DNA of 64,000 nucleotides, from assembly GCF_046105845.1 (NCBI RefSeq), contig NZ_CP151004.1; one strand, 5' to 3'. A program made the position numbers and the translations under genes. The notes under the pieces were generated by a model that saw nothing but the letters and a program-made list of their open reading frames with translations, was not told where the DNA came from and searched no databases. This document shows positions 26,549 to 28,498 of this stretch, piece after piece (the stretch's first letter is position 1; the number at the start of each line of letters is the position of its first letter). Source of the stretch: Escherichia coli. GTDB lineage: Bacteria > Pseudomonadota > Gammaproteobacteria > Enterobacterales > Enterobacteriaceae.

Positions 26549-28498
26549 ATGAAAATGACTTTGCCGTTTAAACCCCATGTGCTGGCGCTAATTTGCAGTG
26601 CCGGGCTTTGTGCCGCCTCTGCCGGGCTATATATAAAAAGCCGCACAGTGGAAGCGCCTGTGGAAGCGCAATCGACACAACTGGCTGTGTCTGACGCTGC
26701 CGCGGTTACGCTTCCTGCAACGGTTTCCGCGCCTCCCGTAACGCCCGCCGTCGTTAAAACCGCATTCAGCACTGCGCAAATAGATCAATGGGTTGCACCT
26801 GTCGCGCTGTACCCCGACTCTCTGCTTTCACAAGTGTTAATGGCATCGACCTATCCGACAAACGTTGCGCAAGCAGTACAATGGTCGCACGATAACCCAC
26901 TTAAACAAGGCGATGCTGCTATTCAGGCGGTATCTGACCAGCCGTGGGACGCCAGCGTCAAATCACTGGTGGCCTTTCCACAGTTGATGGCGTTGATGGG
27001 CGAAAACCCGCAATGGGTGCAAAACCTGGGCGATGCTTTTCTGGCGCAGCCGCAGGACGTGATGGACTCGGTACAGCGATTGCGGCAACTGGCGCAACAA
27101 ACCGGCTCGCTGAAGTCATCAACCGAACAGAAAGTTATTACCACAACGAAGAAAGCTGTACCGGTAAAACAGACAGTCACGGCACCCGTCATACCATCCA
27201 ATACCGTTTTAACTGCCAACCCCGTCATTACAGAGCCGGCAACAACCGTCATTTCCATTGAGCCTGCCAATCCTGATGTGGTCTATATTCCCAACTACAA
27301 CCCAACCGTGGTTTACGGGAACTGGGCCAATACTGCGTATCCGCCGGTTTATCTGCCACCACCAGCCGGAGAACCGTTTGTTGACAGCTTTGTGCGCGGA
27401 TTCGGCTATAGCATGGGCGTTGCTACCACGTACGCGCTATTCAGCAGCATCGACTGGGATGACGACGATCATGACCATCATCATCATGACGATGATGATT
27501 ATCATCACCACGATGGCGGTCATCGTGACGGTAATGACTGGCAACACAACGGCGACAACATCAATATCGACGTCAACAATTTCAACCGTATCACCGGTGA
27601 GCATCTTACTGATAAGAATATGGCATGGCGGCACAATCCAAACTACCGTAATGGTGTGACCTATCATGATCAGGATATGGCAAAGCGGTTTCATCAAACC
27701 GATGTCAACGGCGGAATGAGCGCCACGCAGTTACCTGCTCCAACACGCGACAGCCAGCGTCAGGCGGCAGCAAGTCAGTTTCAGCAACGAACACACGCCG
27801 CACCCGTCATTACGCGAGATACCCAACGTCAGGCAGCGGCACAGCGGTTTAATGAAGCTGAAAACTATGGGAGCTATGACGACTTCCGCGACTTCAGCCG
27901 TCGCCAACCACTGACCCAGCAACAAAAGGACGCCGCTCGTCAGCGTTATCAGTCGGCCTCTCCTGAGCAGCGCCAGGCAGTCCGCGAGAAAATGCAGACT
28001 AACCCGCAGATCCAGCAGCGAAGAGAGGCAGCGCGTGAGCGTATTCAGGCCGCCTCTCCTGAGCAGCGCCAGGCAGTCCGCGAGAAAATGCAGACTAACC
28101 CACAGAACCAGCAGCGAAAAGAGGCAGCGCGTGAGCGCATTCAGTCTGCCTCGCCTGAGCAGCGCCAGGCAGTCCGCGAGAAAATGCAGACTAACCCGCA
28201 GATCCAGCAGAGAAGAGAGGCAGCGCGTGAGCGTATTCAGTCTGCAACTCCCGAACAGCGCCAGGTGTTTAAGGAAAAAGTACAGCAGCGCCCACTGAAC
28301 CAACAGCAACGTGATAACGCCCGCCAGCGTGTTCAATCAGCATCACCTGAACAACGTCAGGTTTTTCGGGAGAAAGTTCAGGAGAGCCGCCCACAACGTC
28401 TAAACGACAGTAACCATACTGCCAGGCTGAATAACGAGCAACGGTCAGCGGTACGGGAACGGTTGTCTGAGCGTGGAGCAAGGAGAATGGAAAGGTAA
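26549..28498 (+). CDS. yacH: Uncharacterised secreted protein (DUF3300-like) with His/Asp-rich tract and C-terminal tandem repeats
   Basis: 649-aa ORF with signal peptide; synteny between acnB and lpd. Confidence 0.88.
   Translation: MKMTLPFKPHVLALICSAGLCAASAGLYIKSRTVEAPVEAQSTQLAVSDAAAVTLPATVSAPPVTPAVVKTAFSTAQIDQWVAPVALYPDSLLSQVLMASTYPTNVAQAVQWSHDNPLKQGDAAIQAVSDQPWDASVKSLVAFPQLMALMGENPQWVQNLGDAFLAQPQDVMDSVQRLRQLAQQTGSLKSSTEQKVITTTKKAVPVKQTVTAPVIPSNTVLTANPVITEPATTVISIEPANPDVVYIPNYNPTVVYGNWANTAYPPVYLPPPAGEPFVDSFVRGFGYSMGVATTYALFSSIDWDDDDHDHHHHDDDDYHHHDGGHRDGNDWQHNGDNINIDVNNFNRITGEHLTDKNMAWRHNPNYRNGVTYHDQDMAKRFHQTDVNGGMSATQLPAPTRDSQRQAAASQFQQRTHAAPVITRDTQRQAAAQRFNEAENYGSYDDFRDFSRRQPLTQQQKDAARQRYQSASPEQRQAVREKMQTNPQIQQRREAARERIQAASPEQRQAVREKMQTNPQNQQRKEAARERIQSASPEQRQAVREKMQTNPQIQQRREAARERIQSATPEQRQVFKEKVQQRPLNQQQRDNARQRVQSASPEQRQVFREKVQESRPQRLNDSNHTARLNNEQRSAVRERLSERGARRMER
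27455..27540 (+). repeat. Low-complexity His/Asp codon tract in yacH
   Basis: GATGACGACGATCATGACCATCATCATCATGACGATGATGATTATCATCACCACGATGGCGGTCATCGTGAC encodes DDDDHDHHHHDDDDYHHHDGGHRD. Confidence 0.9.
27956..28435 (+). repeat. Five tandem 96-bp (32-aa) coding repeats in yacH
   Basis: Units start near 27956, 28052, 28148, 28244, 28340; first three nearly identical (SPEQRQAVREKMQTNPQIQQRREAARERIQ), last two diverged. Confidence 0.92.

Follow-up and report, generated by a model that had tools for sequence, protein, structure and literature searches.

The question raised by yacH, a gene in a 64,000-nucleotide stretch of Escherichia coli DNA (contig NZ_CP151004.1 of assembly GCF_046105845.1; hereafter the window), is what a tract rich in histidine and aspartate is doing in the middle of its product. 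An earlier reading of the window from its letters (the sequence-only reading) had placed such a tract at nucleotides 27455-27540, in a secreted protein YacH of unknown function, and had proposed that it may bind divalent metals and that its codons are slippage-prone. The tract proved to be real and in frame, with its exact start one codon (3 nt) to the right, at nt 27458..27541. The identification of the gene also agrees with the annotation, which reads 'DUF3300 domain-containing protein' (yacH) in 5,425 of 5,426 complete E. coli genomes, and no characterised DUF3300 member was found in the literature searched. The explanation that we consider best, and whose chances we hold to be evenly balanced, is that the tract would be a disordered, expanded loop, slippage-prone in its DNA and cation-binding as a protein.

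The tract stands out by its composition. The densest 28-residue segment of YacH holds 21 aspartate and histidine residues, and when the protein was shuffled 20,000 times the highest count was 12; the binomial tail for this density is approximately 1e-18, using proteome-like frequencies of the two residues. Among the six-frame open reading frames (ORFs) of at least 100 amino acids in the window, the runner-up density was 10. The tract codons are GAT or GAC and CAT or CAC, and the DNA holds overlapping direct repeats at 9-15-nt spacing. Tandem Repeats Finder called no array at the tract, because the runs are short and are interrupted by synonymous codons. Two alternative-frame ORFs also lie over the tract, at 27258..27659 on the plus strand and 27437..27697 on the minus strand, and their products are rich in isoleucine, methionine, threonine and valine (for example, MTTIMTIIIMTMMIIITTMAVIVTVM). 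They were set aside as by-products, their composition being that of GAT and CAT codons read in other frames or on the other strand.

The structural setting of the tract was assessed with an AlphaFold2 model of YacH, built from an alignment of 123 sequences (mean predicted local distance difference test score, pLDDT, 76.7). The helical core, residues 70-200, was modelled with pLDDT of 95-98, and the beta-rich parts, residues 230-300 and 338-385, were also confident, with pLDDT above 94 for residues 231-270. For residues 311-330 the pLDDT was 48/45, and no secondary structure was placed between the strands at 299-301 and 338-341. Given the low pLDDT and the lack of secondary structure, the tract is a predicted disordered loop. 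The loop is flanked by conserved landmarks (Table 1). On its C-terminal side lies a strand whose consensus across the DUF3300 family is (V/I)NI(N/D)VNRYNN, followed by a motif with the family pattern W(Q/R)H(N/D)PxHR(R/K)GVPY, in which W360, H362 and R367 are each conserved in at least 90% of the 123-sequence alignment.

We next compared the loop with the corresponding part of other family members. A whole-library HMMER search at E ≤0.001 returned 9,795 representative clusters (50% identity), so that DUF3300 is a very large family. In a typical member, the tryptophan is followed by a turn of about five residues (such as GRGDV, GGGDV or HHGDV) and then by the conserved NINVN strand; the turn is exactly five residues long in 78 of the 123 aligned sequences. 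The orthologs of 19 enterobacterial species in the same alignment have loops of 21-35 residues, rich in aspartate, histidine, glycine and tyrosine or tryptophan, and three near-relative cluster representatives have loops of 25-39 residues. Among the GTDB species genomes, the expanded tract was found in every enterobacterial ortholog with a readable tract region, the tract-bearing taxa including Escherichia spp., Citrobacter, Salmonella arizonae, Atlantibacter, Kluyvera, Raoultella, Buttiauxella, Yokenella, Franconibacter and Dryocola. The sequence-only reading had named absence of the tract from most orthologs as a finding that would count against it; the enterobacterial orthologs display the opposite. 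Judged from these alignments, the tract is a clade-specific enterobacterial expansion of a conserved surface turn. Insertions rich in histidine, aspartate and glycine are also present at the same site in four proteins that are approximately 35-48% identical to YacH (P0166, P0215, P0128 and P0255), which suggests that the turn after the tryptophan may be a recurrent hot spot for independent expansions of this kind.

One assembly encountered in this survey deserves separate mention. L033 (CACSKA010000010.1), labelled Chryseobacterium sp. 18061, carries an enterobacterial-type yacH with the tract (58% identity), which closely resembles that of an assembly produced by the same project, Citrobacter sp. 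18056 (L036). The assembly is probably mislabelled or contaminated.

Considering the repetitive codons of the tract, the variation in its length was determined within the species. In the 120 E. coli/Shigella proteins closest to YacH, the stretch from SSIDW to NINID occurs in 19 variants of 31-35 residues, with histidine runs of 3, 4, 5 or 6, aspartate runs of 3 or 4 and, in some, an extra HD unit. A 201-nt query spanning the tract was also compared with all complete E. coli genomes; 5,416 matched, and an evenly spaced sample of 60 was inspected. Fifty of the 60 genomes had a span of 201 nt, six of 207 nt, two of 162 nt and one of 225 nt, and the one other genome gave a partial match. In the 207-nt allele, taken from an O25b:H4-ST131 genome, CATGAC is duplicated in tandem, which adds HD; in the 225-nt allele a tandem duplication of 24 nt adds DDHDHHHH. 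The 162-nt allele has arisen by a 39-nt deletion (13 codons) between CATC-containing repeats, after which DDDDHDHHHRDGNGW remains. All 59 fully covered alleles were in frame, differing by multiples of 3 nt. In Salmonella Typhimurium, an 8-bp deletion, 850_857delGATCATCA (Asp284fs), makes yacH a pseudogene; the deletion has been reported, relative to LT2, in UK-1, 14028s, D23580, SL1344 and a milk isolate (PMC10048834, PMC3391293). Since the anchoring tryptophan is at about residue 280 in Salmonella, this lesion falls inside the tract.

Collectively, the tract DNA is an indel hot spot, through replication slippage and microhomology, and it is kept in frame in E. coli. The proposal that its codons are slippage-prone is thus borne out by the unit-step (CAT)n alleles, the tandem duplications and the microhomology deletion in E. 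coli, as well as by the 8-bp deletion in S. Typhimurium; the comparison of tract length across strains, which the sequence-only reading had put forward as a check, revealed a polymorphic tract in E. coli, with spans of 162-225 nt in the 60-genome sample. With its unit-step (CAT)n changes, its 6- and 24-nt tandem duplications and its deletion between short direct repeats, all in frame in E. coli, the tract resembles coding trinucleotide microsatellites. The YacH runs differ from such microsatellites in being short and broken by synonymous codons, and the variation seems lineage-linked rather than hypermutable.

A repetitive tract in which an out-of-frame deletion of 8 bp has inactivated the gene in several S. 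Typhimurium strains could also be a contingency locus, at which frameshifts in a hypermutable repeat would turn yacH on and off. We regard this as very improbable, since every repeat unit has a length of three nucleotides or a multiple of it, no run exceeds four identical codons in the tract studied here or six histidines in other alleles, and the 59 fully covered alleles of the E. coli sample differ by multiples of 3 nt. In addition, the alleles look lineage-linked, as with the extra HD in ST131-type genomes, and the lesion in Salmonella is fixed and shared. Phase variation at the tract was rejected on the ground that the sampled E. coli alleles are all in frame; the triplet units, short runs and lineage-linked alleles likewise argue that the tract is not a phase-variation switch.

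We then examined whether the composition of the tract is constrained, using 29 distinct orthologous tracts. The order of blocks, namely acidic, histidine run, acidic, aromatic, histidine and Gly-rich, is kept across orthologs from Raoultella to Escherichia. A D[DH]D start was found in 28 of the 29 tracts, a histidine run of at least three in 23 and an aromatic residue in 28. The 29 tracts together contain no lysine and one glutamate and, besides one alanine and one valine, no aliphatic hydrophobic residue, methionine or phenylalanine. The codons for aspartate (GAT 172, GAC 134) and histidine (CAT 125, CAC 101) are interleaved across the orthologous tracts, and species differ synonymously at positions that stay aspartate or histidine. 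Codons that are interleaved and synonymously different in this way point to conservation at the amino-acid level and not to a recent pure microsatellite. The pattern therefore argues for a tract that may be conserved as protein while its synonymous codons turn over.

The same survey bears on the alternative that the tract is a neutral low-complexity expansion, a by-product of slippage that is tolerated in a surface turn, has no specific role and owes its uniform composition to slippage copying what is already there. A tentative place, clearly below an even chance, is given to this alternative. It would account for the variable length of the tract, both among E. coli alleles and among orthologs (16-33 residues up to the N-I-N-I strand), for a natural allele that has lost 13 codons, for the predicted disorder of the loop and for the pseudogenisation of yacH at the tract in S. 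Typhimurium. Most of the DUF3300 family manages with a five-residue turn, and glycine, histidine, arginine and aspartate already abound in these short, ancestral turns, so that they could have seeded expansions of this kind. It fits less well with synonymous codons that are interleaved and vary between species where the residue stays aspartate or histidine, and with a block order and embedded aromatic residues that are conserved from Raoultella to Escherichia. The freedom of 29 tracts from lysine, and nearly from glutamate and hydrophobic residues, and the independent appearance of histidine- and aspartate-rich insertions at the same site in distant family members also speak against neutrality.

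In the explanation that we favour, YacH would be an exported envelope protein in which the Enterobacteriaceae expanded the turn of about five residues to a disordered, acidic, histidine-rich loop of 20-35 residues. This loop may serve as a multivalent site that holds divalent cations with low to moderate affinity, Zn2+, Ni2+ or Cu2+ being the most plausible, with the histidine imidazoles coordinating the metal and the aspartate carboxylates assisting. The charge of the loop would titrate near periplasmic pH, because its nine histidines lie in an environment of net charge -11.

Two characterised systems provide the analogy for metal binding. ZnuA, a cluster A-I solute-binding protein (SBP), has a His-rich loop without which two extra zinc sites are lost; it shows disorder in crystal structures, and its role as chaperone or sensor is debated (PMC8900738). 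YacH resembles ZnuA in being a periplasmic protein, by prediction, with a species-variable, disordered loop; that of ZnuA has about 20 residues, is rich in histidine and acidic residues and forms the extra low-affinity zinc sites (PMC8900738). In contrast to ZnuA, YacH has no SBP fold or domain and no primary metal site of high affinity; its gene has no ABC (ATP-binding cassette) transporter genes beside it and no Zur-box-like site above chance upstream. Of the features that define ZnuA-type proteins, YacH has the histidine-rich, acidic loop, predicted to be disordered, and lacks the solute-binding-protein fold. In the periplasmic protein PA4063 of Pseudomonas aeruginosa, two disordered His-rich loops contribute to micromolar zinc sites composed of an aspartate and two or three histidines (PMC8561739). 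This exported protein, too, has histidine-rich stretches as its sole distinctive sequence feature, and its loops are disordered in the apo form (PMC8561739). It differs from YacH in its ferredoxin-like fold, in its expression under zinc deficiency and in its place in the PA4063-PA4066 operon; yacH, by comparison, is monocistronic, lies in a metabolic neighbourhood (acnB and lpdA) and is linked to envelope stress. Since neither an SBP nor a ferredoxin-like domain or fold was recognised, YacH falls outside the ZnuA and PA4063 families. In composition and predicted disorder, however, the YacH loop resembles its counterparts in ZnuA and PA4063, and by this analogy we consider it probable that the loop would bind Zn, Ni or Cu in vitro.

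Several observations weigh against the metal-binding explanation. A natural E. coli allele (L040) has its tract cut to 15 residues, yacH is inactivated at the tract in several S. Typhimurium lineages (PMC10048834, PMC3391293), and most of the wider DUF3300 family is without the tract; it follows from these three points that both the tract and the gene are dispensable. A low-complexity, slippage-prone loop could also hold its composition without selection. Upstream of yacH, no operator for the metal regulators Zur, Fur, NikR or CueR-like proteins, nor one for CpxR, scored above chance against the consensus strings used. The best Zur-box-like match to the consensus was 13/23, a score equalled by about 0.1% of window positions, with approximately 0.4 such matches expected in the scanned region. 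No metal-binding, metal-related or biochemical study of yacH was found in the searchable literature, and the expression and phenotype data that were found all concern envelope or cationic-peptide stress, not metals.

These data comprise the following reports. The yacH gene is CpxR-regulated, its deletion mutant survives protamine better than the parent, and its mRNA goes down with protamine and cecropin (PMC9600279). Its promoter is induced by ampicillin (PMC8865558), cathelicidin induces the gene modestly (PMC6737244), and its expression depends on Rob (PMC7537768). A weak mar/Rob-box-like match (11/14 to the consensus), starting at 26443 in the acnB-yacH spacer, fits the reported Rob dependence. 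In K-12, a binding site for the sigma-28 holoenzyme has been located in the same spacer by genomic SELEX (systematic evolution of ligands by exponential enrichment; PMC5493296). Our promoter and terminator scan around yacH gave counts at shuffle expectation, with no convincing sigma-70 promoter in 26348..26548. Because no metal operator rose above chance, no metal study was found and all the data concern envelope stress, a dedicated physiological role of the loop in metal homeostasis is less secure than binding in vitro, and we consider it doubtful.

A different use for the charge of the loop was also considered. The C-terminal region of YacH, residues 463-649, is basic, and its DNA carries a 96-nt tandem repeat (Table 1). 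The polyanionic loop could act as an electrostatic or pH switch, binding the protein's own C-terminal repeats or polycationic ligands, such as cationic antimicrobial peptides, at neutral pH and releasing the partner when acid protonates its histidines and neutralises it. The computed charge asymmetry, -11 with nine histidines in the tract and +20 in residues 463-649, is consistent with such a switch, as are the CpxR regulation, the higher protamine survival of the deletion mutant and the mRNA drop with protamine and cecropin (PMC9600279), together with the responses of yacH to cathelicidin and ampicillin. We nevertheless judge the switch unlikely: it is purely inferential, the model gives no confident contact between the loop and the C-terminal helices (both are of low pLDDT), and the number of C-terminal repeats varies among strains independently of tract length. 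More improbable still is a combination of the two ideas, in which the loop would be a selected, slippage-tunable sensor of metal and/or protons that gates the engagement of envelope polyanions (lipopolysaccharide, peptidoglycan) by the C-terminal repeats.

The 96-nt repeat is a second, larger length polymorphism in yacH. The window protein has five PEQRQ motifs, and among the 120 other E. coli proteins 79 have four and 25 have three. The gene spans 1950 nt in the window versus 1854, 1758, 1764 or 1782 nt in other complete genomes, and the 1950-nt allele was seen neither in the best-ranked match nor in a 30-row spread sample of complete genomes. A resemblance of the SPEQRQ repeats to the LTXXQ motifs of CpxP, Spy and ZraP was considered and found to be unsupported by Pfam at E ≤10; YacH has no LTXXQ or Metal_resist match and no Spy fold, and thus does not belong with these proteins.

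The coordinates of these features, and of the neighbouring genes, are collected in Table 1.

Table 1. Features of yacH, its product and the adjoining genes (coordinates in the window)
Feature	Coordinates	Strand	Details
yacH coding sequence	26549..28498	+	649 amino acids plus stop; ORF list, E. coli genome annotation
Putative Sec signal peptide, residues 1-25	26549..26623	+	Likely cleavage ASA/G; manual criteria; AlphaFold2 helix 9-24
Predicted disordered linker rich in Pro/Ala/Val/Thr, residues 26-72	26624..26764	+	pLDDT 41-52, no secondary structure
Pfam DUF3300 (PF11737) match, residues 75-333	26771..27547	+	Helical core 75-184 and beta-rich part 194-301 confidently modelled
W303, near-invariant Trp, N-terminal anchor of the loop	27455..27457	+	Codon TGG; conserved in at least 90% of 123 sequences
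His/Asp-rich tract, D304-W331	27458..27541	+	DDDDHDHHHHDDDDYHHHDGGHRDGNDW; 12 D, 9 H, net charge -11; predicted disordered loop
(CAT)4 run, H310-H313	27476..27487	+	Unit-step polymorphic; 3 to 6 His in other E. coli
(GAT)3 run	27491..27499	+	Codon listing
Strand NINIDVNNFN, residues 337-346, C-terminal side of the loop	27557..27586	+	Alignments; AlphaFold2 strand 338-341
Motif W360-R-H362-N-P-x-x-R367	27626..27649	+	Conserved across the family
Basic Arg/Gln-rich helical C-terminal region, residues 463-649	27935..28495	+	Net charge +20, 36 R, 37 Q; helices of pLDDT about 47-90
96-nt tandem repeat, 3.4 copies	27938..28265	+	90% match; 32-residue repeats, e.g. SASPEQRQAVREKMQTNPQIQQRREAARERIQ; Tandem Repeats Finder
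acnB	23597..26347	-	ORF list
lpdA	28569..30026	-	ORF list

The assignment of YacH to DUF3300 is firm: the match scores 263.9 bits, where 25 is the cut-off, has an E-value of 1.5e-78 and extends over positions 2-227 of the 227 in the profile. DUF3300 was the sole domain in the Pfam scan, which returned no ZnuA-type domain, and the NCBIfam scan of YacH returned no family. A sequence-profile search of the PDB with the 123-sequence alignment gave matches at the level of chance (E 0.02 or worse), and a Foldseek search of the model against solved structures gave a best E-value of 0.63, without a fold match.

The export that the sequence-only reading had assumed is plausible. The putative signal peptide was judged by manual criteria (n-region, h-region and small-x-small motif). 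The N-terminus, MKMTLPFKPHVLALICSAGLCAASA followed by G26, has basic residues K2 and K8 and an A23-S24-A25 motif before the glycine; the most hydrophobic segment of the protein is residues 11-25, and the top windows of 15 and of 19 residues both begin at residue 11. The model places a helix at residues 9-24, followed by a disordered linker at 28-59. Export has been predicted for YacH (PMC9600279), and signal peptides have been reported in DUF3300 proteins (PMC4653623). On these features, export of YacH via a Sec signal peptide is likely.

In Proteobacteria, DUF3300 genes lie upstream of DUF2950 genes (PMC4653623), and a DUF2950 (PF11453) gene was found directly downstream in the distant homologs L041, L042/L043 and L046. 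No such partner adjoins yacH, whose downstream neighbour is the convergent lpdA (spacer 28499..28568). Among tract-bearing relatives, the partner is absent at P0124 and P0215 and is retained at P0128, which has a shorter His-rich insertion. The proteins encoded beside DUF2950 share with YacH the helical core, the anchoring tryptophan, the NINVN strand and the WxHNPxHR motif; they differ in having the five-residue turn and the DUF2950 neighbour, whereas enterobacterial YacH has the tract and has gained the basic repeat C-terminus. On the other side of yacH, the ORF called for acnB is 916 amino acids long, and an odd-looking leader precedes its aconitase-like sequence. This leader suggests that translation truly begins at a later codon than the first in-frame start, as is to be expected of a mechanical ORF call.

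A disordered His/Asp-rich loop in an exported protein is of a known kind, and that of YacH is a new instance in an uncharacterised, very large family. YacH itself is part of the E. coli 'y-ome' and of a very large exported family without a characterised member or a solved structural relative. No other feature of YacH yields a biochemical prediction as concrete and as cheap to test, in this case that metal binding or pH titration would depend on the loop, and natural controls exist in the short-loop homologs, the 13-codon deletion allele and the duplication alleles. In practical terms, E. coli lineages, such as the ST131-type, can be told apart by the in-frame lengths of the tract and of the C-terminal repeats, and in S. 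Typhimurium the tract is a place where yacH recurrently becomes a pseudogene. If the loop binds no metal, it would be a clean case of a slippage-generated, compositionally conserved low-complexity insertion. If it binds metal in vivo, YacH would be an unrecognised component of periplasmic metal buffering or sensing, linked to the Cpx/Rob envelope stress responses. Were the loop a functional metal or pH sensor, its interest would rise; a sensor that gates the C-terminal repeats would explain the Cpx/Rob regulation together with the altered susceptibility to cationic peptides, and would provide the first functional handle on DUF3300.

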